This document shows positions 5,320 to 38,963 of a DNA stretch of 64,000 bases, piece by piece. The position numbers were made by a program, and so were the translations under genes. Every line of letters starts with the position of its first letter. The stretch's first letter is position 1. The notes beneath the pieces are model-generated. The model was not told the DNA's origin, made no database searches, and saw only the letters and a program-made list of their open reading frames with translations. This DNA is from an uncultured Actinomycetes bacterium (GTDB taxonomy: Bacteria; Actinomycetota; Thermoleophilia; Gaiellales; JAICJC01), in NCBI GenBank assembly GCA_963732075.1, contig CAVSYD010000005.1, positions 46,483 to 110,482 of the forward strand. The letters are read 5' to 3'.

Positions 5320-5792
5320 CTTGGGTATACTTGGCAAAAAGTTCCGATGGGTCAACTTTGAAGATTGGCCGTAGCTGTAATCCGAATAGGCGAATGGGGC
5401 AATTGCGAAGACATGCCATCCAAGTACTTAAGCGTGACGTTGGTAGCTTTACGCTTATTCACGCCATGCGCGGAGGACCCAAGCTAGAGAGGGCCATGCA
5501 ATACCTTTTTATTCCGCGATTCGGAAGGCCGGGATATGAATGGTTTTCGTTCTCGGATGAGATCGTAGATTTCTTCCTCGGTGGAGAAAAGCCTCCAGAG
5601 CCAAAAGAATGGAGGCAGGCAATCGTATACCGGTACCAAGAAAAGAAGCGTCTAGCCATTGCTGAAAAATGGCGTCTACATTGGGCCTTAGAGCGTGCTA
5701 CATGGGGCGATGTGGATGATGATGGAAATAAGGTGCCATCCCTGATTATCCACCGCGCCCTGGAGCGCGAGCGCAAGGAAGCGGGCATATGA
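5316..5792 (+). CDS. T5orf172 / MUG113 (GIY-YIG-superfamily-like) domain protein
   Basis: WVYLAKSSDGSTLKIGRSCNPNRRMGQL ... LERAMQYLF ... GYEWFSF matches the T5orf172 pattern (vY..., KIG.t.n...R, E..lH, EWF). ATGA overlap with the RHH gene. Confidence 0.65.
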   Translation: MTWVYLAKSSDGSTLKIGRSCNPNRRMGQLRRHAIQVLKRDVGSFTLIHAMRGGPKLERAMQYLFIPRFGRPGYEWFSFSDEIVDFFLGGEKPPEPKEWRQAIVYRYQEKKRLAIAEKWRLHWALERATWGDVDDDGNKVPSLIIHRALERERKEAGI

Positions 5793-5953
5793 CCGGCCAC
5801 TGTTCCCGCTGCAAAGTAAAGCTGGACGATAAGAACTCCAATGACACGACCAGAATGAGGCAGGCCGGGCAGTGCCGCTCATGCGCCGCGGTCTACATGA
5901 TTGCGTGGAGGAAACGCCGTAAGGCTAAGCGCTGCGCTATCCTAACCCCATGA
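5789..5953 (+). CDS. 54-aa zinc-ribbon-like protein (below the ORF-track length cutoff)
   Basis: My translation: MTGHCSRCKVKLDDKNSNDTTRMRQAGQCRSCAAVYMIAWRKRRKAKRCAILTP. It has CxxC...CxxC and a basic tail. ATGA overlaps on both sides. Confidence 0.5.
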   Translation: MTGHCSRCKVKLDDKNSNDTTRMRQAGQCRSCAAVYMIAWRKRRKAKRCAILTP

Positions 5954-6303
5954 AGCCCATCTTGCTTTTCCTGCTCTCTGCGCTCGCTCTCTGCGCCCAA
6001 ATACCGCCCGGTTGCGTTGCCAATGTCCACTGTGTCAGCCTGTCATGGACTGACACCGCCAACCCGGCCGGTACGACCTATAACGTCTATCGCGCGTCGG
6101 GACTGTGTAGCGGCACTCCGGCCTTCACGCAGATCATCGCTGGAGTGGTTCCCAAGATATACGCGGACCAGACGGTAACTACGGGGACATGGTGTTATGC
6201 AGTTACTGCGGCTGGAGGCGGGCTCGAGTCAGCTAAAAGCGCCCCGGTGCAAGCCGTGATAACGCTGTTCGCGCCGCAAGCAGTTTTTGCTACGGGGCAG
6301 TGA
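5950..6303 (+). CDS. secreted fibronectin type III-like protein
   Basis: Signal peptide MKPILLFLLSALALCAQ. FN3-like pattern VSLSWTD...YNVYRA...YADQTV..G.WCYAVTA...ES. Confidence 0.6.
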   Translation: MKPILLFLLSALALCAQIPPGCVANVHCVSLSWTDTANPAGTTYNVYRASGLCSGTPAFTQIIAGVVPKIYADQTVTTGTWCYAVTAAGGGLESAKSAPVQAVITLFAPQAVFATGQ

Positions 6304-6333
6304 GTGGTGCGGTCGCATTCCTGAACCTTACCA

Positions 6334-6855
6334 TCACTGATTGGTCATCTGAACAGAGTCGAAAACCGCCGAACTACCGCTTGCCGAGAGGGTAGCACCC
6401 GTGTTGTTAGTGCAGACGATACCCCAGATTGCCGGGACGGCCCCTCCGAAGGCAGCCGCGATGGAATAGGGGCCTGCCGTATACGTGGTCGCATTGGCCA
6501 CGGCATTGATAATCCCGATCTGGATTAGGTTTGTAGGGCTCGTGAGTGTCTGGCCGGCATCCGTACCTGTTACTCCATCGGTGCAGGTCGAAGTCCCGCC
6601 CACGCAGCCGTAGGCGTATATGATAACGGTGCCCGTTGCGGACACGCCCGAGGCACCGGTCTTGGCAATGACATACACTTGCTCGTCCACATCCAGATTG
6701 GTGGTGTTGGCTACCGACGCCGATCCGCGACTGCTGTTGTTTGTCAGTGAAGCAAGCGTAATGGTGAGGGACGTATTGGTTGCTCGATAGCTGGGCTTGA
6801 TTGTGGTTGCCAGCAACATAGTTGGAATGAGAAGAAAGGCTAGTAGTTTTTTCAT
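6334..6855 (-). CDS. secreted beta-rich hypothetical protein (173 aa), last gene of the large minus-strand operon
   Basis: Signal-peptide-like N-terminus MKKLLAFLLIPTMLLA. Thr/Ser/Gly/Ala/Asn-rich. Starts 2 nt downstream of the GH16 stop. Confidence 0.6.
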   Translation of the reverse strand: MKKLLAFLLIPTMLLATTIKPSYRATNTSLTITLASLTNNSSRGSASVANTTNLDVDEQVYVIAKTGASGVSATGTVIIYAYGCVGGTSTCTDGVTGTDAGQTLTSPTNLIQIGIINAVANATTYTAGPYSIAAAFGGAVPAIWGIVCTNNTGATLSASGSSAVFDSVQMTNQ

Positions 6856-6857
6856 AA

Positions 6858-7826
6858 TTATTGAATCACCGGCCCACCCGTAGATACCGGACCACCGCGA
6901 ATGGAGGCTGCGCCAGAGCTTATATTGCCCCCGGCCAAGCGTGCCATGCGGGCCAGCGGTCGCAAGGCGAGGGCCGGCACGGGAGGCTGAAAGTCGTCAA
7001 AGAAGATCGTCGACCCCGCCAGATTTAGAACCTGCACGTAATCGGTATAGTGCGAAGCCGGGAGATTGCCATTCGTAGGCGTACCTCCCACGCCGCCAGT
7101 CTGGGTCAAAATGATCATAAACATTGGCAGGCTCATAGCCTGATTACAACTTGCCTGCTGGACGCCATCCATTGAAATTGAGATGGTAGTCGAAGTCCAG
7201 TGCATGCTGTAGGTGTGCCAGTTAGTGTCTACCGCGAATGTGGCGTCACAGACCCCAAACCCAGGATTGGCAATGTGGAACTGACACCAGCCACCAGAAT
7301 TGTAGCACTCCAGCATGTCTATTTCGGTGTAGTTGGCCGCACTTAGATTTGGGCAACCGTCAAAACCCGTATCTCCGGAGAACTTATTTGAATTCTGGCA
7401 ATTGGCCCCGAGTAGCCAGTGAGACGGCCATAGATTCGTGTTGGAGTTCGGATATTTTGTTCTGAAAATAACGGTTCCAAAGGTGAAGTTGAAGGTGTTC
7501 CACTGAATCTGTCCGGTTGTGTACGACCATGACGCTGGGGTGGTGTTGACGGTCCCGTCTGCGTTGAAATTACCGCAGGTCGAAGCTACAGCCGTAGTCG
7601 TGATGACCAGGTTCCCGTTTATCTGATTAACGCCAGAGGGCATATTACATTCGGTTTCATTCTGCCCGTACTCGCCGTGTCTGGAAACGACAGTCCACTG
7701 CTTGTTGAGCTGCCCCTGCGAGAGTGTCTGGCATACCGGCGACTTCCAACTGAGCGTGGCACCGCAGCCGTGCTGAGCAAGCGCGCATGCGGGCAAAAGG
7801 AAAAGTAAAGCAATGAGAGATTTCAC
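6858..7826 (-). CDS. secreted glycoside hydrolase family 16 (laminarinase / beta-glucanase-like)
   Basis: GTG start. Signal peptide KSLIALLFLLPACALAQ. GH16 catalytic motif YTEIDMLE (E-x-D-x-x-E) and WPSHWLLG. Confidence 0.85.
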   Translation of the reverse strand: MKSLIALLFLLPACALAQHGCGATLSWKSPVCQTLSQGQLNKQWTVVSRHGEYGQNETECNMPSGVNQINGNLVITTTAVASTCGNFNADGTVNTTPASWSYTTGQIQWNTFNFTFGTVIFRTKYPNSNTNLWPSHWLLGANCQNSNKFSGDTGFDGCPNLSAANYTEIDMLECYNSGGWCQFHIANPGFGVCDATFAVDTNWHTYSMHWTSTTISISMDGVQQASCNQAMSLPMFMIILTQTGGVGGTPTNGNLPASHYTDYVQVLNLAGSTIFFDDFQPPVPALALRPLARMARLAGGNISSGAASIRGGPVSTGGPVIQ

Positions 7827-7828
7827 AT

Positions 7829-8617
7829 CTAATCCTTAATCGCGATGGAGGCAGTTACGATATGGCTGGTGGGCGATTGATTTACGGTAGGTGCCCCGCC
7901 ATTGGTGGAATTTAGCAGATGCGCTTGAAAATCTCCGCCTGGATTAGAGTTGTCGTTTGTGTAAGCTGGCGTTCCGCTTGGAGCACTACAGGCACCCCCG
8001 CAAGACCCTATTGTGGCTATAAAGTCGTTTCCTCCGGTCAGTGTAAGGGCCGTTCCCACACAGGCAGTACAATTAACTGTCACCAGATTGGAACCAGACA
8101 CATCGAAGGATGCCGAGGTAGAACTTGAAAATTCCCAAAATTCAGCTAGTTGTTGATTGGCTCCAGCCGTTACTGTTAGCGTAGTCCCAACGGCTGTCAG
8201 GGATGCGCAATAGGCCATGCTCACCCATCCTGCGGTCGCATCCCCCGCCGATGTATTTGCCTGCACGGTCCACGATGTTGAACAGCCAGTAGCGCTGGTA
8301 ATGGTCTGGTTGGCACCAAATGCAGCGGCAATAATGCCGAAATGCCCAGCGGTCGGGTTGGTTATCGTGATAGCGCAAGTTGAACCTGAGCAGGTATTAA
8401 ATTTCGCCTGCGTGAAGGTAAAGGTCCCGCTACCGGCACCTTGAGCGTGGACCATTCCGTTGGCGTTAAACGGGGCTCCCTGCGGAACGAAGAAGCGCAA
8501 ATTGTGGTCTACGAATGGAGGAGTTTTAAGCGTTACATTGACAGTCTTATAGTGAAAGAAATCCGGGGTTGCTCCGAAGGAAGCTGTCACCGCAACTATC
8601 CCCAAGATCCATTTCAT
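7829..8617 (-). CDS. secreted Cys-containing beta-rich protein (262 aa), paralog-like to 19478..20239
   Basis: ATG at 8617 overlaps the upstream stop as ATGA. Signal peptide MKWILGIVAVTASFGA. Architecture resembles the 253-aa protein. Confidence 0.6.
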   Translation of the reverse strand: MKWILGIVAVTASFGATPDFFHYKTVNVTLKTPPFVDHNLRFFVPQGAPFNANGMVHAQGAGSGTFTFTQAKFNTCSGSTCAITITNPTAGHFGIIAAAFGANQTITSATGCSTSWTVQANTSAGDATAGWVSMAYCASLTAVGTTLTVTAGANQQLAEFWEFSSSTSASFDVSGSNLVTVNCTACVGTALTLTGGNDFIATIGSCGGACSAPSGTPAYTNDNSNPGGDFQAHLLNSTNGGAPTVNQSPTSHIVTASIAIKD

Positions 8618-11600
8618 CGGATTACCTTCCAATTGAGAGTGATCGACCCCGGATCTACTGTTCCAGAAGTCCAATTGCAACCTTCGAAGTTGACAGTGTC
8701 GGCGGTCGGATAAGCGTTAATGCTGAATCCTCCCGTTGAGGCCGGGACGTAGCCTGTCACGGCCTTGATGGAAGCGTTGGTGGTGAATAGGATAACGTCT
8801 GTTGAAAGCGTCCCTGTAGCTGTATCGGTAATGACCGTGGCACAGGCCCCGCTTGCCGTTGATGCGAAGTCTACGGCCTTGGCTCCGTGGGCAATTACCT
8901 GGGCGAGCGTAGCGTCCCCGGCGGCGGTCCCGGCGGTGATCCCGTGTATGCTGGTTTGATTGGCCAGCGCTACGGCGATGTTGGCGGTCGGGAGGACGCC
9001 GGTCACATCGGCGGTGAGGGAGACAGCAGAACTGGTAACAGTTTGCGTTGATCCGGCAAAGTGCGCTATTCCCGCGCCTGGGGAAGACGCATTGACTACC
9101 GTTCCTGGAAGATCCGCCAATGCGGCAGTCTGGTATCCAGGGGCCGCAGTGGACCCGGTGTTGTTCATCCAAAATTTATGCGCCGCTGCCGTGGCTAGTG
9201 TGGCTGTAACCACGCCAGTGGAGGCGCTGTTATTGATCAGCGTTCCATCGCCAGTGAATGACGTCACCGGTGCTGCCGTAGCCGCGAACGGCATGACGCC
9301 GCCAGAACGCTGTGTGAAGATGTTGGCCGTCGCCGCATTGGTAGAGAACGCAATCGTATAGTCCACGAATAACGCCGCCGTAAGATCGATGTTCGATGAA
9401 ACCGCGGTGTTCGTATCTACGAAGATCGAATCCGCCGTAGTGGTGAGAGCGCCAAGATCCACCGCTAAGGGACCATGAATCTCAAGGTTTCCAGTCGCGC
9501 CTGTCGTGTGCGTGTAGCCCATTACCGCAAGGTTCCAGTTGTTGTTGGTCACGGCCGCAATTGTAGCCGTGCTCACGATGGAGATGAGGGTCACGACCGT
9601 TCCCGATCCGCAACCGCTAATTGTGCAGAGCTTTATTTTAAGCGTGATGGTCGGAGTCTGCGCGGTCTGGGTCGTATAGACTCCAGCCCCATCGAATAGA
9701 AATGGCTGATTGGCACTGTTGAAATATCCAGCACCGAGGCTCAGCTCCATGAGTTGCTGGTCGGACGTGGTGTTGGTGTTGACCGTTGCAGGAGTGGTGC
9801 TGGTAACTGAGTTCCCCGCGCCCGCCCCCCCTGGACATGCCTGGAAGCTCGGATCTGAAGACGCACCGTTAGAGAGATAGCATTGTCCGCTCGTACCGGG
9901 GCTTGTGGCGACGATGGCGCTGGTGGTTTCTCCAACAAGTGGGCCGTGCGCAGTGAAGGTTCCGGCCCCGGTGCCACCGCTACCTACGGCCACAGCGGTA
10001 TTGAAAGTCTGAACGCCCGTGAATGTCTGACCGGCATCCGTCCTTGCGGTTGTAAAACTCGTGGTCGGGGTCGTCTCGGTAATTCCATCTGTCGATGCGA
10101 TCGTGAGGCTGTTTTGGACAGCAAATGTTTTAGCATTGGTGATCGAAAGCGTCCCGGTAGATGCTGTAATTGCCAATCCGTTAATACTAGTCTGGTTCGC
10201 CAAAGATGCAGGAAGTTGAGCGGTAGTAGCCGATCCGCTCAGATTCGAGAACGCCGGCTGCGCCTTGGATATCACGCCGGCCGCCGATACCGCAGTCAAG
10301 AAATTATTAGATGCTCCAGTGTCCGGCACAACCGTATTACTGACGGTCGAGGAATTATTGTCCATCGAGGAAAAGATGTGATTTGTGGAATCCCACCACC
10401 ATCGTCCATCGGAAGCTGGCGGAGTGCCGGGCTTGGAAATTTCCGGTCCCATTGCGCCCGCCACGGTAGAAGAGCATCCGGTTCCGTTGACAGTTGAACC
10501 GTCCGCTCCCACCTCAAATTCCTGCGTAGTGGTTGCGCTCAGCGTAGGATCAACCGTGCAAGTATTAGTCGCGGATGCACCATAGGAAACAGTCCTTCCG
10601 CCCGTACCGTCTTGCGTCCATGCGATCGAGAATTTGGCCCCAGCGGTTTTGTTCGTAAAAGTCACCGATGTTACGTTGGCAGTCAAGGCACCAGGCTCAA
10701 CGCGCACAGGCGACTTAACGGAAACATCGGCAAGGGAAAACGTGGGGGTAGCGGAGAAGGCTGGATTGGTAGCAGTTGAACCCGTGAATACCGATGTAGC
10801 TCCGCCGCCAGAGTACTGCGGGATGTTCAATGTCCCTCCCGAATAGGTGGCCGCGCCGCTCGATCCCGTGGTAGTAAGGGTGAATAGCGCCTGAGTGTTC
10901 AACATCGTCGCAATCTGCGCAGCGGTGAGGGCCAATGGTGCAGCCGGGGAGCCCGTATTGTTCCCCATGATGGAATTCGCGGCTAGGTTGGCCATCTTGG
11001 AAAGTGATATTGCCCCAGCACCGATAGTCAACGCAGGGAAGGTAGTGGTCGCGTCCCCGGTGAACACACCGGAGTTAACCATCTTGGCGGCGGTGATCGC
11101 GCCCGCGCCGATTGTCAGCGCCGGGAACGTTGTCGTTGCGTCGCCGGTGAACACTCCAGCGTTGATTAGCTTGGCCGCCGTCACGTTGGCATTTGTGATG
11201 TCGGCGGTGACGATCAAGCCGCCAGCGGTTGCTCCCGTGGTGGTTGTGTTGTGTAGGACGCCTGTGGTGAACCCGCCTGGAACCTTGAATGCGGAGGTGG
11301 CCATCGCGGAGAGGTCTAGGACGGCGGACGCCCCGCCGGCGAGCGTATGAGATGCCATGGTGATGACCCAATCCACAGAGGACGCGCACGCGCTGGAGCC
11401 ATTGTTAATCACGATCTGACCAGCAGACCCTCCAACCGAGCATCCAGAACCAGCAGAGAACGCGGTCCACGTATTCGTCGCCGTGCAACCGTAATAGGTG
11501 CCTCCATCGATCAGTATCGGCGTCTGTCCTGGTGTACATGTGGCGGTTGTATGGTCGCCAGAAAGAACCGGTCGGAAGCTAGCCGAGAATCCTTGCGGGA

Positions 11601-11682
11601 ATGGATTAACCACGGGCGCTATCTGAGCGCGAAGGCACAGCGGTATCAGTAGGATCAGCAACGCGCGAAGCATGCGGGTCAT
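8614..11682 (-). CDS. 1022-aa secreted tail-fibre-like protein
   Basis: Signal peptide MTRMLRALLILLIPLCLRAQ. Long Thr/Gly/Ser/Ala-rich beta-type sequence. Internal 29-aa tandem duplication. Its C-terminal 88-aa module is shared with the 617-aa protein. Confidence 0.7.
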   Translation of the reverse strand: MTRMLRALLILLIPLCLRAQIAPVVNPFPQGFSASFRPVLSGDHTTATCTPGQTPILIDGGTYYGCTATNTWTAFSAGSGCSVGGSAGQIVINNGSSACASSVDWVITMASHTLAGGASAVLDLSAMATSAFKVPGGFTTGVLHNTTTTGATAGGLIVTADITNANVTAAKLINAGVFTGDATTTFPALTIGAGAITAAKMVNSGVFTGDATTTFPALTIGAGAISLSKMANLAANSIMGNNTGSPAAPLALTAAQIATMLNTQALFTLTTTGSSGAATYSGGTLNIPQYSGGGATSVFTGSTATNPAFSATPTFSLADVSVKSPVRVEPGALTANVTSVTFTNKTAGAKFSIAWTQDGTGGRTVSYGASATNTCTVDPTLSATTTQEFEVGADGSTVNGTGCSSTVAGAMGPEISKPGTPPASDGRWWWDSTNHIFSSMDNNSSTVSNTVVPDTGASNNFLTAVSAAGVISKAQPAFSNLSGSATTAQLPASLANQTSINGLAITASTGTLSITNAKTFAVQNSLTIASTDGITETTPTTSFTTARTDAGQTFTGVQTFNTAVAVGSGGTGAGTFTAHGPLVGETTSAIVATSPGTSGQCYLSNGASSDPSFQACPGGAGAGNSVTSTTPATVNTNTTSDQQLMELSLGAGYFNSANQPFLFDGAGVYTTQTAQTPTITLKIKLCTISGCGSGTVVTLISIVSTATIAAVTNNNWNLAVMGYTHTTGATGNLEIHGPLAVDLGALTTTADSIFVDTNTAVSSNIDLTAALFVDYTIAFSTNAATANIFTQRSGGVMPFAATAAPVTSFTGDGTLINNSASTGVVTATLATAAAHKFWMNNTGSTAAPGYQTAALADLPGTVVNASSPGAGIAHFAGSTQTVTSSAVSLTADVTGVLPTANIAVALANQTSIHGITAGTAAGDATLAQVIAHGAKAVDFASTASGACATVITDTATGTLSTDVILFTTNASIKAVTGYVPASTGGFSINAYPTADTVNFEGCNWTSGTVDPGSITLNWKVIR
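11000..11171 (-). repeat. in-frame tandem duplication (2 x about 29 aa) inside the 1022-aa gene
   Basis: NAGVFTGDATTTFPALTIGAGAITAAKM followed by NSGVFTGDATTTFPALTIGAGAISLSKM. The DNA copies differ mostly at synonymous sites. Coordinates are approximate. Confidence 0.7.
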
Positions 11683-11746
11683 GAGTTTTCCTTTGCTTGA
11701 TGGTACCTTAAACTGATGATGGATGGAGGGTACGGCCAGGGGAATA

Positions 11747-11794
11747 CTTAGTTGTGGCTGGCTAGACGGTCTTAGTTGTGGCTGGCTAGACGTT
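11747..11794. repeat. 24-bp tandem direct duplication with a 22-nt perfect core
   Basis: cttagttgtggctggctagacg occurs at 11747..11768 and again at 11771..11792. The upstream copy (in gene direction) encodes the last six codons plus the stop of gene 11772..12053. Confidence 0.9.
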
Positions 11795-12053
11795 TGCCGT
11801 TTTCCAGGTCACGGAGACGTTCTTCATGGTCCTCTATGCGCTCTTCGCGAATGGATGAATTGCTGATCGCTACCGTCAGCGCCTGCGTAGCCGCTGCATT
11901 CACCTGCAATTGAACCAGCAGTTTATCGAAGTCTTTTTCGAGCCGTTCCACGCGATACCTCAAAACGTAGGCGGTTCCAATTGCGGCTGCCAGACTCAAC
12001 AGCAGAGCCAAGGCCGAAACCAGGACGCCAGTCGCCGCAAGGTTCATTTGCAC
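11772..12053 (-). CDS. N-terminally membrane-anchored coiled-coil protein (93 aa)
   Basis: TM segment ATGVLVSALALLLSLAAAIGTAYVL, then a heptad-like charged region (ERLEKDFDKLLVQLQ...EERLRDLEN). Confidence 0.5.
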   Translation of the reverse strand: MQMNLAATGVLVSALALLLSLAAAIGTAYVLRYRVERLEKDFDKLLVQLQVNAAATQALTVAISNSSIREERIEDHEERLRDLENGKRLASHN

Positions 12054-12082
12054 TTATAGATCCATGATTGAAGGCGTTGCAC

Positions 12083-12367
12083 TTACTTGGTGGGCTCCTG
12101 ATGGATCTCGGTAACTTTGACCACTTGTCCTTCAGGGGTGAGAGTAGTTGCGACCGTAGATTGCCCAGCCTTCTCGCCGCTTGGGGTGAGCGCGTAAGCC
12201 TGAATGCCAAGAACCATCTGAATGCCCTGAAAGGCCACGCCAAAGAAACTTGTGAGTGCCACTAATTGAGTCGGGTTCATCTGCGAAAAGGCGGGTATCA
12301 AATATTGAACCGCGGCCCCCAGTATGATCATCGACAGGTGAACGGCAATCGCCAAGTTTCGAGACAT
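12083..12367 (-). CDS. small multi-TM membrane protein (94 aa), holin-like by size and topology only
   Basis: Hydrophobic segments LAIAVHLSMIILGAAVQYLI and LVALTSFFGVAFQGIQMVLGI. No family recognised. Confidence 0.5.
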   Translation of the reverse strand: MSRNLAIAVHLSMIILGAAVQYLIPAFSQMNPTQLVALTSFFGVAFQGIQMVLGIQAYALTPSGEKAGQSTVATTLTPEGQVVKVTEIHQEPTK

Positions 12368-12515
12368 TTGACTCCTTGAAGGTTCAGCGTAACACTATGC
12401 TAGCCGCAATACAAAGGCCCCACGCCTTCCGAGGGATGCGTCTCGGTTAGCGCGGGGCCTTGGTATCCCCACTTAAGGGGCCTTTAAGGGTTATGTGCAG
12501 TCTGAAACTATCTTA

Positions 12516-12758
12516 CTACGGAGTCGTGCTCCCCATCGCATCGAGCGCGGTGGTAGCCGCATCGAGCTTGGTCACTTCCGTAGCCGCCTGCGCCGCCAGG
12601 TCCTTCGCGGTTTGCAGGTCAGTGGCGGATGCGATCTGCGCCAGCAGCGCGGTAATGCGCGCCTGGATCGCGGTGATGTCCGCTGAAATCTTGTCTGAGT
12701 CGGTATCGATCTGGGCCAGCGCGGATTTGGTTGCCGCGAGGTCGTCGGTGAGAGCCAT
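12516..12758 (-). CDS. Ala/Thr/Asp-rich coiled-coil protein (80 aa)
   Basis: ORF track. AAAAAGGAGAAT lies upstream of the ATG. Helical low-complexity composition. Confidence 0.5.
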   Translation of the reverse strand: MALTDDLAATKSALAQIDTDSDKISADITAIQARITALLAQIASATDLQTAKDLAAQAATEVTKLDAATTALDAMGSTTP

Positions 12759-12760
12759 GT

Positions 12761-12934
12761 CTAATTCTCCTTTTTTACGGTCAGTTGGGTGAGCTGTACT
12801 ACAGATTTGTGAAGCTTCGCGGCAGTAGATTGAGCTTGCAATGCGAGCGCGTGCAGATCACTGGCCAGAACGGCATACTGGTCGGCCGCTTTCCCCCGAA
12901 GGGTGATCTCGATGTCCGGTGAGCAGTCTAGCAT
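12761..12934 (-). CDS. 57-aa hypothetical protein (below the ORF-track cutoff)
   Basis: My translation: MLDCSPDIEITLRGKAADQYAVLASDLHALALQAQSTAAKLHKSVVQLTQLTVKKEN. Its stop lies 2 nt before the next ATG. Confidence 0.35.
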   Translation of the reverse strand: MLDCSPDIEITLRGKAADQYAVLASDLHALALQAQSTAAKLHKSVVQLTQLTVKKEN

Positions 12935-12980
12935 TAGATTCGCCTAAAAGAGTCTACCATGACCGAATGACGGCACGGTG

Positions 12981-13181
12981 TCACCTATGGTAAGGATAAA
13001 ACACCGGCCCCGAGCCGAACATCCCCGCGAGCAAGTAGATTAACCAGATGGCAACGAAGACGATCACGATAACCCTGATAATCCGCGCAATCGCTGCATC
13101 CATTGGTATTTGAGTGATGCCCCATAGGATCACGCCGACGATCAGTAGCGTGACTAGGATCTGAACTAGCGGGAATGGCAT
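12981..13181 (-). CDS. two-TM small membrane protein (66 aa), resembles the Thivi_2564-type family
   Basis: MPFPLVQILVTLLIVGVILWGITQIPMDAAIARIIRVIVIVFVAIWLIYLL. The pattern recalls a widespread small membrane protein family; this is from memory, not a search. Confidence 0.55.
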   Translation of the reverse strand: MPFPLVQILVTLLIVGVILWGITQIPMDAAIARIIRVIVIVFVAIWLIYLLAGMFGSGPVFYPYHR

Positions 13182-13227
13182 AGCTGCACCTCAAGGATTA
13201 TATAGCATGTGTGGGGCCTAACGACTT

Positions 13228-13265
13228 GGGCGCTACCCCTTTCGAGATAGCGCCCTTTTGGTTTT
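13228..13265 (+). terminator. rho-independent terminator-like hairpin oriented on the plus strand
   Basis: GGGCGCTA (13228..13235), 12-nt loop, TAGCGCCC (13248..13255), then TTTTGGTTTT. The T-tract is present only in the plus orientation. Confidence 0.45.
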
Positions 13266-13446
13266 GGCTGGAGCACTTGCCGCCGATTTCACCGGAACAC
13301 GTCATAAGCTTTACAACGTTTCACCGGATGCGCGTTCCCATCCGGATCACTTCGCAATCCCATCGGCTTTATTGCATCGGTCTTACGGTCTCACACCCCA
13401 GCCCTCTTTGTTGGGTTGGGAATCCTTTACGAAAGAACATTATATA

Positions 13447-13689
13447 CTACGCTCCCACCGTTCCGTAGTACTTATTCACGGCCTCCGCCACCACCTCGCA
13501 AAGCGACTGAGCCAATGCAACCGGCACAGCCACCTTGCTATTGATCTGCTGCAAGGATGCCAGCGCCGGCGCTATGTCGGCGTACAGCGCGGCGCCAGTG
13601 AGCGTCTTGGATGCGAGCATCGCACGAATTGAGCCGATTAGGCCGAGTATCTCCGTGACGAGCGCGAAGTAGGCGAAGAAGGTGCTCAC
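13447..13689 (-). CDS. hypothetical protein (80 aa)
   Basis: ORF track. 4-nt overlap with the upstream gene. Hydrophobic N-terminus. Confidence 0.5.
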   Translation of the reverse strand: MSTFFAYFALVTEILGLIGSIRAMLASKTLTGAALYADIAPALASLQQINSKVAVPVALAQSLCEVVAEAVNKYYGTVGA

Positions 13690-14093
13690 GGGATGATGAC
13701 CGTAACCCCGCGCCCGGTGCCGACTTCGACCGTGTAGAGCGTGCTATACGCAGCCGGGACACCTTGAACGAGTCCCAATTGCTCATAGGAGTAGTTCCAG
13801 AACTCCGAAGGTCCTGCGTTGGCCTTGAGTGTTTCATCCAGATCGGCGGGGTACGGCGGGCTGTTCGGTGCTTGCTGGTTAGCAATCTCCGCGTACCATC
13901 CGAGGATCTGTTGCTGAGTGAAGGTGAACTGGTTGTAGGGAATGCCGACAACCACAGTTCCGGCGAGTAAATCGCTGGAATAGCCGGACAGAGCGCCGTT
14001 GTAGATGGTAACCACGGTCTGCCTTTGCTGGTAGGAGAGCACGGGGTTGATTTTTGCCGCGAAAGGCAATTTTGGGTCGAGCTGAAATGACAT
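13686..14093 (-). CDS. hypothetical protein (135 aa)
   Basis: ORF track. ATAAGGAGAAAATCA lies upstream of the ATG. No family recognised. Confidence 0.55.
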   Translation of the reverse strand: MSFQLDPKLPFAAKINPVLSYQQRQTVVTIYNGALSGYSSDLLAGTVVVGIPYNQFTFTQQQILGWYAEIANQQAPNSPPYPADLDETLKANAGPSEFWNYSYEQLGLVQGVPAAYSTLYTVEVGTGRGVTVIIP

Positions 14094-14203
14094 TGATTTT
14101 CTCCTTATCTGACTATGGAGCGTTCCGTAGCTCCCGAGGTGGTCAACCTCACGCTACGCAGTCGCGAGAAACTCGCGTGAGCGAGAAAGTAACAACTACG
14201 AGA

Positions 14204-14602
14204 TCAAGTTTGGCTTTGTGCTCCGCCATCGCGTATTTCATCCGGCTCTTCTTCTGGATGCGTTTCACAACCTTCGAATCTTCCAGCAATGAAAGCATCG
14301 AAGTTGATCGCGGCTTCAACCATAGCGTTCATGGTTGCGGGTTGGATGACGGGTCCATTCCCGGCCCGCTGTTGATTGTACGCCTCTCTTAGATAATCTG
14401 CGTCTTTGATGATAAGCCCCTGATATGCCTGAATGGCCATCATGAGCGCTGTGGTGCGACGCTTCTCCGACTTTGTAAGATCCATTGTGGTCTTGGTCGG
14501 ATCGAAGGCAATATCATGCTCCTCCAGCACCGATAAGTCCCCCGGCGTCCCATCTGGGTGCGTGGCGGTTATTTCTACCTCTGGTAATTTTGACTTTGAC
14601 AT
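14204..14602 (-). CDS. hypothetical protein (132 aa)
   Basis: Internal ATG at 14602 is preceded by AAAGGAGAAAAAG. Product MSKSKLPEVEITATHPDG... Confidence 0.55.
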   Translation of the reverse strand: MSKSKLPEVEITATHPDGTPGDLSVLEEHDIAFDPTKTTMDLTKSEKRRTTALMMAIQAYQGLIIKDADYLREAYNQQRAGNGPVIQPATMNAMVEAAINFDAFIAGRFEGCETHPEEEPDEIRDGGAQSQT

Positions 14603-14644
14603 CTTTTTCTCCTTTGCCGTGACTAGCGGCAAGCCCACTATACC

Positions 14645-19477: not shown

Positions 19478-20239
19478 CTATAGCCCCTTTAGCGCTAGGT
19501 TCCAGCCCACAATACCGGACCATCCGGACCCTCCATTGCTGACCGACCATTGAGGATTTGTGGCACCCGCGGCCGTGATGATCTTATAGCCTATCGCTCC
19601 ATCCATCGTGGCCGCTGCACAAGTACTTATCGCCAAGGTATAGCTTGAATTTATGGCATTGGTTCCGTCTGCTGCGCAATAAGCAGCTATTCCGGAAACA
19701 ACAATATCATTGGCAAACCCGGTGGTGATGCTGCCAGGCTGAAAGGTTAAAATTCCAGCCCCGGAAGATGTCACCGAACTTATGATGCTTCCGTCCAGCG
19801 CTCCACTACCGCTGACCGTAATACCAGCAATCCAGCAGGCTGCCATGCAATTACTAAAAGAGACTGTTACGGTGGCTCCTGCTGCTGGCGTCAATGTATA
19901 ACAAAGCTGACCTGAAGAAACGGATCCTGCGCCTCCGCTTGCAATCCCGACACAAGTAAATGAGTTGCTTGGCGTGCTGGTGATAGCAAGGGGGTCGCTG
20001 GTATCACAGTGTTGAGAGAAACATCCGGATACCACTATCAAAGCGGTGGACCCGGTGTTGGTAATGGCCGCCGTGGTTCCCGTGGCCGCTCCTGTGGTTT
20101 GCTGGGCATCGATGAAGGTCGGTGGGGTAGGCGTGGTGCTGCATGATGCCCCATTTCCGCACCCGCCTCCGCCGAGTCCCGGCATGAACTGCGCGTGGAG
20201 CGCTAAGCTGACGAGAAATAAACCAATGAGTGTTTTCAT
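19478..20239 (-). CDS. secreted Cys-containing beta-rich protein (253 aa), paralog-like to 7829..8617
   Basis: ATG at 20239 overlaps the upstream stop as ATGA. Signal peptide MKTLIGLFLVSLALHAQ. Confidence 0.6.
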   Translation of the reverse strand: MKTLIGLFLVSLALHAQFMPGLGGGGCGNGASCSTTPTPPTFIDAQQTTGAATGTTAAITNTGSTALIVVSGCFSQHCDTSDPLAITSTPSNSFTCVGIASGGAGSVSSGQLCYTLTPAAGATVTVSFSNCMAACWIAGITVSGSGALDGSIISSVTSSGAGILTFQPGSITTGFANDIVVSGIAAYCAADGTNAINSSYTLAISTCAAATMDGAIGYKIITAAGATNPQWSVSNGGSGWSGIVGWNLALKGL

Positions 20240-20796
20240 CTTAAAATCTGAGCGTTCAGCGTTACAGCCCCAGGAGTGATAGAGGAGGTTGTATTGTTGC
20301 AAACTGAAACGTTGATCGTGTCAGCAGTGGGGTAGACCTTGAGTGTCAGCATTCCGCCTGTGGCGGGGCTGTACCCCGTCACTGCGTCCGTATTGGCATT
20401 GAACGAAGTGTTGATGGTGTCCGTTGTCAGCGTGCCGGTAGCGCTCAGCGTTTCTACGCGGCAGGTGGCGCTTGTTAGAATGCTCGTCGACAGGGCCTTG
20501 GTGCCGGTAAAGAAACCGCCCCGCATCACGATAACGTTGACCGTGACGGCCCCTGGAGTGATAGACAATCCCGTGTTATTGCAAACCGAGAAGTTTACAG
20601 TGTCTGCCGTGGGATACGCTTTGACTACAAGGATTCCCCCGGTAGTGGGGGCATACCCGGTAACCGCATCGGTATTCGCGTTGAAATTAGCGAGAATGTT
20701 ATCTGTGGTGAGAGTGCCTGTCGCGGCCAGAGTTTCAACCCGGCATGTCGCTGAGGAAAGAGCGGAGGTGGAAAGCGCCTTGGTGCCGCCGAATAT
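20236..20796 (-). repeat. two tandem copies of a ~92-aa C-terminal module; a third copy ends the 1022-aa gene at about 8617..8880
   Basis: GTKALSTS..SATCRVETL.ATGTLTTD......FNANTDAVTGY.P.TGG.L..K.YPTADT.N.SVCNNT...ITPGAVT.N. The 1022-aa gene ends ...TGTLSTDVILFTTNASIKAVTGYVPASTGGFSINAYPTADTVNFEGCNWTSGTVDPGSITLNWKVIR. Confidence 0.8.
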
Positions 20797-22089
20797 CTTG
20801 GTTGGAAGCCCCCCGCCGCCACCGCTAGCGCACGCCGACCCCACCGACGTACATAATGTTCCGCCGGTGCCGGAGAGCGCTGTAACAGCCGTGCCAGCTA
20901 TCTTGAAGCTATTCCCAGTGCCAGCCGTGTCGTAGGTTTTGTTGGTCAGGGTGTCAGTGGTGGCCTTGGCGATTAACGTGTCCGTGGCTGCCGGAATGGT
21001 GATGGTTCCAGATGCGGCGGCTGTCGCCTGAACTACAGTTCCCCCGCTTGCGGAACCTGGAAAGCCAGCCCCAGGAGGACAATCAAAGCACCACATTGGC
21101 GCTAAGGCTTGAAGCGTTGAGGATGAGGAAGCATAGAAAGATTGAAAATTGGTCTTCCCTGCTGGCGTTGGGAATATAGTGAAGTCTCCAAGGCCACTCA
21201 TGCCCGCGCATGTGAAGGTGCGACCTGGCGTACCGTCATTGGTTAACTTGATTGTGAGAAGCTGTCCAGTCACGAACCCCGATATGGTCCCGCACGTAAT
21301 GTTCGCCCCAAGCGTGGCAGTGATGGTCAGAACCGTGCCAGAGCCACCAGAGATGGGTGGCGCGGTGGTTATGGTGCCGAGAGGCGTAAGTGCGGCTCCA
21401 CCTCCGCTACTGCATGGAGCGCTGGAGGCATCCACGTGAACACAATCCCCTGATGATCCAGTAACTACCGCTGGAGTGCCTGAAGTGGCTTTGATTACGC
21501 CCGTTAATGATCCCAATCCACCGCATGTCCCGCTCGTCCCATTCACCTTAACGCAATCCGTGGGCGAACCCGTCACCGCGGACGGAACCCCCGCGGTCGC
21601 ATAAATCACTCCGGTCAACAGCCCAAGCCCAGCGCACGGAGCCCATACGACAGTGCTGCCAGTATACTGAATGCAATATTGAGCCATCGCCCCAGAAGTG
21701 TCTAACTGCGACAACTGAATGATCGCCGGATTTGGACCAGCCGCACAAGAGAATCCGCATGGATTTGGAGTTGTCGGGATGGTCCATGTCATCGAATAGG
21801 CCGGCGCTCCGGTCAAATGAAAGTTCGCCGTATAGAAAGATGGCTGTGGCGTCGCGGTCGTATTCGCGTATAGTTGGACCGAGAAGGTGCCCGTGGAGGG
21901 GTCTAGGTTCACTGTCGTAGGGGCATTGCTGACAACGTGCCCGCCCGGTGCTGTGAATGGGCGATTGGGCGTCACCACGATGTAGCCGGTGGCGTGGACT
22001 CCTGCCGAAATCTCAACCGTCCACGAAACGGTGTTGAGCTGCGCAAATGCAGCCCCCGTTAATCCGACCAGTAAGGCTAATAGTTTCAT
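20236..22089 (-). CDS. 617-aa secreted tail-fibre-like protein with a duplicated C-terminal module
   Basis: ATG at 22089 overlaps the upstream stop as ATGA. Signal peptide MKLLALLVGLTGAAFAQ. Fibre-like repeats LTGVIYATAGVPSAVTGSPTDCV and LTGVIKATSGTPAVVTGSSGDCV. Confidence 0.7.
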   Translation of the reverse strand: MKLLALLVGLTGAAFAQLNTVSWTVEISAGVHATGYIVVTPNRPFTAPGGHVVSNAPTTVNLDPSTGTFSVQLYANTTATPQPSFYTANFHLTGAPAYSMTWTIPTTPNPCGFSCAAGPNPAIIQLSQLDTSGAMAQYCIQYTGSTVVWAPCAGLGLLTGVIYATAGVPSAVTGSPTDCVKVNGTSGTCGGLGSLTGVIKATSGTPAVVTGSSGDCVHVDASSAPCSSGGGAALTPLGTITTAPPISGGSGTVLTITATLGANITCGTISGFVTGQLLTIKLTNDGTPGRTFTCAGMSGLGDFTIFPTPAGKTNFQSFYASSSSTLQALAPMWCFDCPPGAGFPGSASGGTVVQATAAASGTITIPAATDTLIAKATTDTLTNKTYDTAGTGNSFKIAGTAVTALSGTGGTLCTSVGSACASGGGGGLPTKIFGGTKALSTSALSSATCRVETLAATGTLTTDNILANFNANTDAVTGYAPTTGGILVVKAYPTADTVNFSVCNNTGLSITPGAVTVNVIVMRGGFFTGTKALSTSILTSATCRVETLSATGTLTTDTINTSFNANTDAVTGYSPATGGMLTLKVYPTADTINVSVCNNTTSSITPGAVTLNAQILR

Positions 22090-22688
22090 TGATAGCTCGA
22101 CGGCGCCGCGCACGGGAATTTCATAGACGTTTGGCCGCCCACGAGATTAGACAGCGTCCCCGACGATGGCACAGGCACGGTCCACGCAATGATGGTAGGG
22201 TTTCCGCCGGCATCCGATACGATCGGGCTCACAGACCATACCGAAGCGGTGGCCTTTGGCGCGCGCGTAGACATTACGATGCTTTGCGCACCCCATGCAC
22301 CGAACCCGCTGGTGTCCACATTGATGGAGAGCGCGTTCGCCGACGTCGGCGTTACAAGATGGAAGCCGTTGAGTGTCGCCCATCCGCCCGTCGCCCCTGA
22401 GATGAAGACGAGAGCCACCTGCGTTACCCCGGTCGCAAAATATAACCCGTGCGCAGTCGCCGTCATGATGCCTGGGTTGGCGTTGCTGACCGTGGTAACA
22501 GCAATAGTAGACGTGCTCTGTGACGACAACGCCTTGCACGTGTAATCCGCTACGCCCGCCGTGTAGTGGATAATCGTCGTCACCGCGTCTTGTGGAGGGA
22601 GCGAAGAGATGATGACGTTCGATTGCGCCCACGCGAGGGCCGGAGTCAGCAGTAACAGTAGTCGCATTCTCGTAAGTCGCATGAGCAT
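22086..22688 (-). CDS. 200-aa secreted protein with a small beta-barrel module
   Basis: Signal peptide MRLLLLLTPALAWAQ. Module VSNANPGIMTATAHGL...ISGATGGWATLNGFHLVT..SANALSINVDTSGFGAWG. Confidence 0.6.
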   Translation of the reverse strand: MLMRLTRMRLLLLLTPALAWAQSNVIISSLPPQDAVTTIIHYTAGVADYTCKALSSQSTSTIAVTTVSNANPGIMTATAHGLYFATGVTQVALVFISGATGGWATLNGFHLVTPTSANALSINVDTSGFGAWGAQSIVMSTRAPKATASVWSVSPIVSDAGGNPTIIAWTVPVPSSGTLSNLVGGQTSMKFPCAAPSSYQ

Positions 22689-22691
22689 AGT

Positions 22692-23561
22692 TTACCTTTC
22701 AGGTGGACCGAGCGGAGGAGGGCCATCGGATGACGTCGCTCCCATCTTCTTCTTTATCAGGTCGTTCAATTCCTGGACCCTCGTGCCGTGAAACTGATCA
22801 TTGATGCGGCTGTTCTTGGCGTACGATGTCCCGAGCTCCGCATCCGCCTTCTTTACGAAATCCATGTAGGACTGCCCCGGCTTCACTTCGGAGATGTTGT
22901 TCTTCACCGCATAGCTTGCGAGCGCCTCATCTTTTGCGGTAGCCGCGGCCCTGCGCTTATCGATGATGGCTTGCTCTAGTTCGGAGAGGTTGGCATTGCC
23001 TGTGGGCTTGGGGGTTGTATCTGCCGTATCCGTGTACATAAGTGGTTTGCCGTCCTCCTGAAGCATAACTGGACGTCCGTTGGCTTGGGGGAATTCCGGC
23101 GGGGGCGGACCCGGTGGCGTTGCGGCCCGCTTGTCCACGGTTGCCTTTGCTCTGTTCAGTGCTTGGGTAGCGGGATTGGGTTGTTCCCCCGGTACGGGGA
23201 CCGTGCGCCCAGATGGAAGCACACGCGATGGTGGCTGGATCGGCGTGAGGTCGGGGATATGATTCCCATAAGCCTGCCCCTGCGTCGGGGTGCGCGGCGT
23301 CGGCGTGGCTTGCACGGGGGGCTTGAGTGGCCCCGGAGTGCGGCCGGACGGAAGCGTGCCGGGTATAGGGCTCAGGTCCGGAATCTGATTCTGATAAGCA
23401 CTCCCCTGAATGACCGGTGCCCGAGGCGTAGTCGGTGCCTTCGGTGGTATCGCTACCGGTCCCGGCTTACGTCCCGTTATCGTTTCCGTTGCTGGTATCG
23501 GACTTAGGTCCGGGATTGGCTGCGGATCTACTGGGGGCACGTCTATACCACCCTTTGGCAT
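22692..23561 (-). CDS. Pro-rich repeat protein with a helical C-terminal domain; 5' end uncertain
   Basis: ATG at 23561 (MPKGGIDVPP...). An alternative GTG at 23609 lies at the compositional junction. Three IPDL(S/T)PI-containing repeats. Confidence 0.5.
   Translation of the reverse strand: MPKGGIDVPPVDPQPIPDLSPIPATETITGRKPGPVAIPPKAPTTPRAPVIQGSAYQNQIPDLSPIPGTLPSGRTPGPLKPPVQATPTPRTPTQGQAYGNHIPDLTPIQPPSRVLPSGRTVPVPGEQPNPATQALNRAKATVDKRAATPPGPPPPEFPQANGRPVMLQEDGKPLMYTDTADTTPKPTGNANLSELEQAIIDKRRAAATAKDEALASYAVKNNISEVKPGQSYMDFVKKADAELGTSYAKNSRINDQFHGTRVQELNDLIKKKMGATSSDGPPPLGPPER
23163..23516 (-). repeat. three tandem Pro-rich repeats of about 32-44 aa
   Basis: IPDLSPIPATETITGRKPGP..., IPDLSPIPGTLPSGRTPGP..., IPDLTPIQPPSRVLPSGRTVPVP... 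Confidence 0.75.
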
Positions 23562-23599
23562 CTGGCTATAGCGATAATCCGCGAGGCCTTGCTTGCCGC

Positions 23600-23620
23600 C
23601 CTGAACCACTTTCCCGGCAG
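23600..23620. other. approximate compositional / taxonomic breakpoint between segment A and segment B
   Basis: GC and codon style change within about 100 bp. A STAS-like reading frame loses its expected stop here and reads into unrelated sequence. Confidence 0.6.
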
Positions 23621-23923
23621 CGTCGCAACGGCCTCGTGGAAGGTGTCGGCGCTGAGGATCCGTCCGTGCCTGCCCATCCGCAGGTCTATGGACACCCGGT
23701 ATGTGTGGCACAGCTCGGCCGCCTCGAACAGGACATGGGTGCCGTCGGGATCGAGCCAATCGAGCTCCGAGCAGTCGATCTCGATCCGCTTCACTTCGGC
23801 ATCCGCCAATGCCGCGACCACGGCCAGAAGCACGCCGATCGAAATTGGCCAGCCCGACTCCCCTCCAGCCGAAGCCGCACACACCCGGCCTCGACCGGCG
23901 AGGCGGTGATCTTGAGCGACCAA
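23612..23923 (-). pseudogene. STAS-domain (anti-sigma-factor antagonist-like) gene fragment, 3' end cut at the junction
   Basis: VKRIEIDCSELDWLDPDGTHVLFEAAELCHTYRVSIDLRMGRHGRILSADTFHEAVATL resembles the C-terminal two-thirds of SpoIIAA/RsbV-type STAS. The frame then continues 25 codons into segment A. Confidence 0.35.

Positions 23924-38876: not shown

Positions 38877-38963
<87 letters not shown>

Follow-up and report, generated by a model that had tools for sequence, protein, structure and literature searches.

The stretch of DNA analysed here (hereafter the window) comprises 64,000 nucleotides of contig CAVSYD010000005.1, assigned to an uncultured Actinomycetes bacterium (GenBank assembly GCA_963732075.1), and encodes on its reverse strand two fibre-like exported proteins of 617 and 1022 amino acids (aa). 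Both end in the same 94-aa module, which is present as a tandem pair in the former and as a single, diverged copy in the latter, and each of the two genes is overlapped by the start of a downstream partner gene. The module is found at the C-terminus of otherwise unrelated phage proteins and, judged from sequence comparison, forms their constant part; we tentatively regard it as an assembly or docking knob. The features concerned are as follows.

20236..22089, reverse strand: coding sequence of the 617-aa fibre-like exported protein ending in two modules, with its ATG at 22089 (MKLLALL...)
22039..22089, reverse strand: signal-peptide-like N-terminus of the 617-aa protein, MKLLALLVGLTGAAFAQ, called by reading the sequence and by a crude n/h/c-region rule
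20521..20802, reverse strand: module copy 1 of the 617-aa protein, 94 aa, 161.6 bits with a three-copy hidden Markov model (HMM)
20239..20520, reverse strand: module copy 2 of the 617-aa protein, 94 aa, 161.0 bits with the same HMM
8614..11682, reverse strand: coding sequence of the 1022-aa protein, the second fibre-like exported protein, with the signal peptide MTRMLRALLILLIPLCLRAQ and one terminal module
8617..8898, reverse strand: module copy 3, on the 1022-aa protein, of the 'type B' subfamily (..TNASIKAVTGY..CNWT..), 149.5 bits
19478..20239, reverse strand: 253-aa partner gene, whose start codon ATG (20239-20237) and the TGA stop of the 617-aa gene overlap as ATGA; in its product, FMPGLGGGG comes after a signal peptide
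7829..8617, reverse strand: 262-aa partner gene, signal-peptide-like at its N-terminus (MKWILGIVAVTASFGA); here too the start codon ATG (8617-8615) and the TGA stop, that of the 1022-aa gene, overlap as ATGA

The open reading frame (ORF) at 20236..22113 on the reverse strand yields 625 aa from a GTG start at 22113 and 617 aa from the ATG at 22089. Its two module copies lie head to tail and are 72% identical over 94 aa without a gap, copy 2 reaching the last sense codon of the gene ahead of the stop codon at 20236-20238, and copy 3 is 44-48% identical to the tandem copies. BLASTP of the 617-aa against the 1022-aa protein aligned essentially the module region alone, with E = 1e-17 and 5e-17, so the similarity holds on formal alignment. 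When the HMM built from the three copies was run against the six-frame translation of the window, the same three copies were returned at 150-162 bits and no further copy was found, the next match having E = 0.48. The module cysteines C20 and C74 are 54 residues apart, and the motif YPTADT.N is kept in all three copies. The initial annotation, which had described two consecutive copies at the end of the 617-aa protein, a diverged copy at the end of the 1022-aa protein, and two cysteines about 55 residues apart with YPTADT.N in each copy, was accurate in its coordinates and motif description. An identical 617-aa protein (P0253) is found on an NCBI/ENA record, a 676,496-bp contig.

Upstream of the modules, both proteins contain internal repeats, which are shaft-like motifs. 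The 617-aa protein has two ~38-aa units of the form GL..LTGVI.AT.G.P..VTGS..DCV.V.... (aa ~160-240 of the 625-aa ORF), and the 1022-aa protein has two ~33-aa units of the form TAAK.(I/V)N.GVFTGDATTTFPALTIGAGAI (aa ~165-235). A second, weak common segment links aa 268-326 of the 625-aa ORF (..LTIKLTNDGTPGRTF..) with aa 333-389 of the 1022-aa ORF (..FSIAWTQDGTGGRTV..) at 37% identity and E 0.012, and may represent another small shared domain.

The initial annotation did not recognise the family and had proposed a profile search of metagenomes. A profile of 45 modules, run against 1.84 billion cluster representatives (clusters at 50% identity), matched 3,519 clusters at E<=1e-3, 2,962 at E<=1e-10 and 1,307 at E<=1e-30, in proteins of 135-1284 aa. 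A first database search, with matches of <=164 aa, had pointed to a family of small proteins, and this idea was rejected on the lengths given by the exhaustive search; stand-alone members, in which a short linker is all that separates the signal peptide from the module, do exist. In all 149 top matches, and in 76 of 77 proteins of an earlier match set, the final residue of the module is also that of the protein. Two copies were counted in 21 of the 149 top matches and three copies in one, a multi-copy share (22/149) that is inflated by the ranking of the list by score, which favours multi-copy proteins; in the unranked locus sample, 5 of 111 module genes carried a tandem. The failure to recognise the family was upheld by every library tried. 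Neither the full 617-aa nor the full 1022-aa protein matched Pfam-A 2025, PHROGs v4 or NCBIfam 20; the 45 isolated modules, searched one by one against the libraries at E<=5, gave scattered chance matches only, as did PDB sequences searched with profiles of 3 and of 45 sequences; and 50,697 deposited phage genomes, searched by tblastn with the 617-aa protein and with a family-typical module (P0006), gave no match. By sequence, the module is an undescribed and unnamed domain family.

The 72% protein identity of the tandem copies is accompanied by a DNA identity of 64.5%, and their codons differ by 45 synonymous and 26 non-synonymous changes. Since the synonymous divergence (dS) is saturated at ~2.2 and the ratio of non-synonymous to synonymous divergence (dN/dS) is ~0.12, both copies are under purifying selection, and the tandem is an old duplication, neither a recent slip nor an assembly artefact. 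Throughout the family, the modules keep 45-60% identity over thousands of clusters with bodies that cannot be aligned, and the module loops (ATGT.TTD, FN.DPTAVTGY, YPT..VNFKVCNNT, ITPGA.TLNW) are nearly invariant, with variation at few positions. BLAST of the window proteins against all fetched loci showed that the module alone is common to the 617-aa and 1022-aa proteins and to 30+ loci, and the module is therefore portable. The view of a discrete portable module at the extreme C-terminus is borne out by its attachment to unrelated bodies in ~100 phage contigs, whereas the proposal that it serves as a host-range diversifying element is not supported as it stands, given the low dN/dS, the 45-60% identity and the near-invariant loops, which make it the most conserved part of its carriers. 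On these alignments the module is the constant part of the carrier proteins, the variable parts being the upstream bodies and the coupled downstream gene.

In the main rival explanation, which takes up the model of the initial annotation, the tip that binds the receptor or glycan is the module itself, as a small lectin or carbohydrate-binding module (CBM); tandem copies would raise avidity and stand-alone copies would act as free lectins. Its position at the extreme C-terminus, the repeated occurrence of arrays of 2-3 copies, the proteins made only of signal peptide, linker and module, and the conserved loop FN.DPTAVTGY, whose abundance of Asp, Asn, Thr and Tyr is a frequent trait of sugar sites, would all suit such a tip. 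The conservation of the module while hosts and bodies differ, however, would allow at most one common ligand and not a host-range variable element, and a single phage can carry the module on two different fibres, as in the window and in three further loci (L011, L020 and L082). We consider a binding tip possible but somewhat unlikely; binding of a conserved glycan by the module may still occur.

The two cysteines are conserved together. Among 271 unique modules both are present in 266, both are absent from 4 and a single one is found in 1, which is the pattern of a disulfide pair, and from this the module is probably held by one disulfide. Such a pair agrees with the export of the carriers to a compartment that is oxidising. 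In P0098 and three further modules, where both canonical cysteines have been lost at once, a cysteine has been gained at the YPT position (KYCTAG, KFCTSG), which may form an alternative pairing or remain a free thiol.

The AlphaFold2 model of copy 2 (m01063da996a4, 65 sequences) is all-beta with six main strands, with a predicted local distance difference test score (pLDDT) of 94.2 and a predicted template-modelling score (pTM) of 0.82. The model of the tandem (pLDDT 92.7, pTM 0.83) runs in copy 1 from strand E6-14 to strand E92-99 and joins the final strand of copy 1 to the opening strand of copy 2 by three residues, which suggests a rigid pair of modules. Foldseek against BFVD, a set of predicted viral structures, returned 14 matches at E<1e-3 with template-modelling (TM) scores of 0.6-0.69 and 14-24% identity, all uncharacterised Caudovirales proteins that are either short (86-170 aa) or long with pectate-lyase, SGNH-hydrolase, collagen or Mtd-N regions. 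The best matches in the PDB were the tailspikes LKA1 gp49 (query TM score, TMq, 0.56) and KP32gp38 (TMq 0.62, root-mean-square deviation (rmsd) 2.9 A), with non-significant E values of 0.2-0.8. The Helix pomatia H-type lectin ranked below the tailspikes (TMq 0.45-0.49, rmsd 4.7-5.3 A, prob 0.72), and the tandem model found no meaningful two-domain match in the PDB.

The module has no Pfam match to the H-type lectins (PF09458), and it has none to the Peptidase_S74 intramolecular chaperone, its model being all-beta and not helical. By predicted fold and by position, the module would belong with the C-terminal sandwich domains of phage receptor-binding proteins, from which the family differs in its signal peptides, its disulfide pair, its reversed conservation pattern and its conserved junction with the next gene. 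The idea of a terminal tip with a lectin or jelly-roll fold is thus supported in part, insofar as a beta-sandwich of the tailspike-end kind is predicted, and is not supported insofar as the tip was to be the variable element of host range. A binding tip draws some support from the sandwich, which weakly resembles the ends of tailspikes, lectin-like or CBM, as well as the Helix pomatia lectin (TMq 0.49 at best).

The genomic setting of the family is that of tailed phages. Exact-sequence look-ups placed small family members in phage contigs: one lies amid P22-type coat, adaptor-like and Phage_stabilise genes and adjoins Laminin_G_3 and He_PIG proteins, another is directly upstream of SLT and Peptidase_M15 lysis genes, and a third is located in a siphovirus-like tail region. 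Three IMG/VR scans yielded 106 loci (14, 80 and 12), some of them on the same contig, and the genes neighbouring the module genes across the loci include the T7-type connector, SU10 adaptor, baseplate hub, endolysin domains and P22 coat, as well as Laminin_G_3, He_PIG and Malectin proteins. Among the bodies of 55 long carriers, few match Beta_helix, tail Collar, pectate lyase-like or Collagen families and many match PHROGs labelled tail fibre or virion structural protein. The position at the exact C-terminus, the tail-gene surroundings and the tail-fibre bodies together agree with the C-terminal place of tailspike end domains. Species-representative genomes contributed 13 loci, 8 of them in Acidobacteriota metagenome-assembled genomes (MAGs) of Bryobacteraceae, Terriglobia, Terracidiphilus and Acidobacteriaceae, two on contigs of >600 kb; hosts are assigned by MAG title, and the remaining titles may reflect mis-binned viral contigs. 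The family is accordingly one of soil phages and prophages that are mostly linked, by MAG title, to Acidobacteriota.

By the crude n/h/c rule, signal-peptide-like N-termini are found on 125 of 142 carriers (~88%) and on 65 of 402 other ORFs of the same loci. In the window, nine consecutive ORFs between 5950 and 22688, of 117, 173, 322 (GH16), 262, 1022, 1176 (PKD), 253, 617 and 200 aa, have such N-termini, mostly ending in AQ; the rule accepts seven of them, the other two (the 173-aa ORF and the GH16 protein) being calls by eye. Phage structural regions do not usually show such a run of signal-peptide ORFs. Signal-peptide-like N-termini are absent from the recombination genes on its left (YqaJ, RNase_T, Gp3-like and T5orf172). 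Literature on exported or signal-peptide-bearing tail fibres and on Acidobacteria prophage fibres offered nothing relevant.

These signals invite the reading that the carriers are not virion proteins at all and are exported by the infected or lysogenic cell as depolymerases or lectins, with the module anchoring them to the envelope or to exopolysaccharide, or stabilising them outside the cell. The excess of signal peptides on carriers, the co-conserved cysteine pair, as expected in oxidising compartments, the nine-ORF run with its GH16 and PKD proteins, and the Laminin_G_3, He_PIG and Malectin neighbours would be in keeping with secretion. The genes nevertheless lie inside tail operons, those of locus L001 standing between adaptor-like genes and a P22 gp10-like Phage_stabilise gene; the bodies match PHROG tail-fibre and virion-structural families, Collar and Collagen; and the fold relatives are Caudovirales tail proteins. 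Secreted non-virion factors are therefore judged improbable. Another reading, which we think very improbable, takes the module for a C-terminal secretion or sorting signal that is read by an export or attachment machine, like the C-terminal domain of the type IX secretion system (T9SS). The architecture is indeed the same, a variable passenger being flanked by an N-terminal signal peptide and, at the exact C-terminus, by a conserved beta-sandwich of ~90 aa, but neither Por_Secre_tail nor any other sorting domain was matched in Pfam or NCBIfam, tandem or triple copies occur in the ranked top matches, and the genes lie in phage tail regions with hosts that are, by MAG title, mostly Acidobacteriota. 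To our knowledge, Acidobacteriota lack T9SS.

A downstream ORF is present at 101 of 111 non-redundant module genes (loci L001-L125 and the window region), and its start lies at -4 relative to the module-gene stop (ATGA) in 72 of the 101 cases and at -1 to +1 in 22, so that 94 fall within -4 to +1 nt. The partners are likewise signal-peptide-like in 94 of 101 cases, and they belong to 73 body clusters. The idea that partners of ~255 aa form one homologous family was rejected, as the 253-aa and 262-aa partners are dissimilar and an all-versus-all BLAST of 29 partners gave 7 weak pairs; the 253-aa partner itself has one close relative by database search besides a 44% identical protein at locus L011. 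Pfam searches of 28 partners returned Laminin_G_3 (4), Gly_rich_2 (3) and He_PIG (1) only, so some partners are ConA-like lectins (Laminin_G_3, 4/28), and no homology to the Tfa, gp38 or Caudo_TAP families was found among the same 28.

What many of the partners have in common is found near their N-termini. A PGPG-type motif (SIPFPGPG, MFPGPG, GMGPGPG), two to five residues past the predicted cleavage site, occurs in 58 of 101 partners from 37 unrelated body clusters; background ORFs have it in 9 of 884 cases and module carriers in none of 142 (Fisher p ~6e-56). The motif also varies together with columns 41-42 of the module upstream. Alongside PFPGPG partners these columns read AS (A at column 41 in 21/22, S at column 42 in 17/22), alongside GMGPGPG partners they read WG (W in 11/11, G in 10/11), and WN, of the type-B kind carried by the 1022-aa protein, goes with QYVP in 5/6. 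The arrangement is that of a fibre and downstream gene cassette, the two genes being adjacent, co-oriented, coupled and co-varying, with linkage a possible cause of the co-variation. Considering the coupled junction and the variable sequence on both sides of it, the conserved unit is a block that spans the gene boundary. If the module were simply a binding tip, the ATGA-coupled partner and the co-variation of module subtype with partner motif would be left unexplained.

These results suggested a reading that we favour while holding it at slightly less than even confidence: the module would serve a two-gene receptor-binding cassette as a constant knob, for assembly or for docking. By analogy with tailspike C-terminal lectin-like domains, the knob would fix, from the C-terminal end, the register or oligomeric state of the fibre, and the co-translated partner would dock on it by way of an N-terminal peptide. 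Specificity would in that case reside in the variable bodies and in the partner, where ConA-like lectins are among the candidates, and in the 617-aa protein the old duplication would, according to the tandem model, provide two rigidly stacked knobs. We infer physical docking from the conserved junction, and trimerisation from the terminal beta-sandwich.

Several observations weigh against the docking knob. Virions are built in the cytoplasm and the carriers appear to be exported, which leaves the route by which they join unexplained, and the signal peptides were called by a crude n/h/c rule and not by a trained predictor. The structure predictions are of monomers, which limits claims on oligomers and docking, and the resemblance to solved tailspike domains is not significant (best PDB E 0.2, TM 0.56-0.62). 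The type-B pair of the window, the 1022-aa protein and its 262-aa partner, is without QYVP, and 38 of 101 partners are without a recognised motif. Linkage can account for the co-variation of module and motif, as ~240 nt separate the two sites within one DNA block. Finally, the stand-alone proteins made of signal peptide, linker and module fit a free lectin as well as an adaptor.

A bolder extension of the docking knob, which we regard as unlikely, is as follows. Acidobacteriota-linked soil phages would build their receptor-binding apparatus from Sec-exported proteins, with the disulfide formed in the periplasm; the knob would dock the PGPG-type peptide of the partner, and the resulting plug-and-play complex would join the virion at or after lysis, or act off the virion. 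If true, this would be a way of maturing and assembling fibres that tailed phages are not known to use. Genuine signal peptides and a genuine disulfide would mean that fibre proteins are exported in these phages, and the place and time at which fibres attach to virions would become testable.

The surroundings of the module genes in the window add some further observations. The GC content is 54-59% from position 1 to ~23 kb, where the region is phage-like, and 66-73% from 24 to 64 kb, with a boundary near 23000-23900. The high-GC part carries chromosomal genes, including TypA/BipA, homocysteine methyltransferase, CHAD/CYTH, a sulfatase and tRNA-Leu (38877-38963). The break marks either an assembly chimera or a prophage or island whose composition is foreign. 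Within the window, the phage-like region (1 to ~23.5 kb) shows neither a capsid gene nor a portal gene. The ORF at 22692-23882 on the reverse strand, whose start is uncertain, spans the GC transition and encodes a helical C-terminal part preceded by three proline-rich repeats of ~43 aa (IPDLSPIP...GRKPGP...); no family match was found for it. Between the 422-aa and 1022-aa ORFs, small ORFs of 66-144 aa (11772-14638, reverse strand), several with 1-2 hydrophobic helices, could encode holin- or lysis-type or membrane proteins, and no relative of them was found in the fetched loci. The gene order of the window recurs in locus L011 (IMGVR_UViG_3300046514_000672, 5626-12268), a phage of 48.5% GC, with two module genes, a 248-aa protein (that 44% identical to the 253-aa partner) and a 909-aa protein that shares 32% identity with the N-terminal half of the window's 1176-aa ORF.

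Viromes of soil and peat commonly contain the family, which numbers >3,500 clusters at 50% identity and has no annotation in any library tried. We know of almost no cultured phages for Acidobacteriota. A profile of the module would flag receptor-binding genes in Acidobacteriota phages, and the junction, composed of the module, the ATGA overlap and a signal peptide with the PGPG motif, marks the boundaries of exchangeable cassettes, which would aid host prediction and engineering.

Several known systems resemble parts of this arrangement. In T2 and S16 gp37-gp38 and in the tail fibre-Tfa pairs of Mu, P2 and lambda, the gene right after the fibre gene acts on or binds the C-terminal end of the fibre, and the pair evolves as a cassette. 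The present genes are alike in the downstream gene cassette, yet no homology was detected, the present partners have signal peptides and a PGPG-type N-terminal motif, and the fibre end is conserved here and variable in the known systems. The T9SS C-terminal sorting domain shares the signal peptide, the variable passenger and the ~90-aa terminal beta-sandwich, and it differs from the present family, which has no model match to it, occurs in tandem copies, is phage-encoded and is found in non-Bacteroidota hosts. Closest in fold are the Caudovirales proteins from BFVD (for example A0A6J4EGL6, A0A6J5MDX4, M4QBV6 and A0A088FAP1; TM 0.64-0.69, E 1e-4), in which the same predicted fold makes up short proteins (86-170 aa) or stands at one end of long pectate-lyase, SGNH or collagen proteins; at 14-24% identity they were missed by the sequence searches, and none is of known function. 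Among solved structures, KP32gp38 (PDB 6TKU) and LKA1 gp49 (4RU4), the best PDB fold matches, also have a small beta-sandwich ending a phage receptor-binding protein, and KP32gp38 likewise has a 'double C-domain' arrangement. They show no sequence similarity to the module, the fold match is not significant (Foldseek E 0.2-0.8), the tandem here consists of two copies of one family in another mutual orientation (TMq 0.31-0.34, rmsd ~13.7 A), and the module carriers have signal peptides and a conserved cysteine pair. Deletion and fusion experiments on KP32gp38 showed that its C-terminal lectin-like (LEC) domain is necessary and sufficient for trimerisation, and that its CBM supports binding and activity (PMC13082707). 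In the same phage, the receptor-binding protein RBP2 docks on the branching domain of RBP1 via a short conserved N-terminal peptide, and the body of RBP2 varies (PMC13082707). The docking platform there is near the N-terminus of RBP1, whereas for the present module docking would take place at the C-terminal end of the fibre, as the conserved junction suggests.

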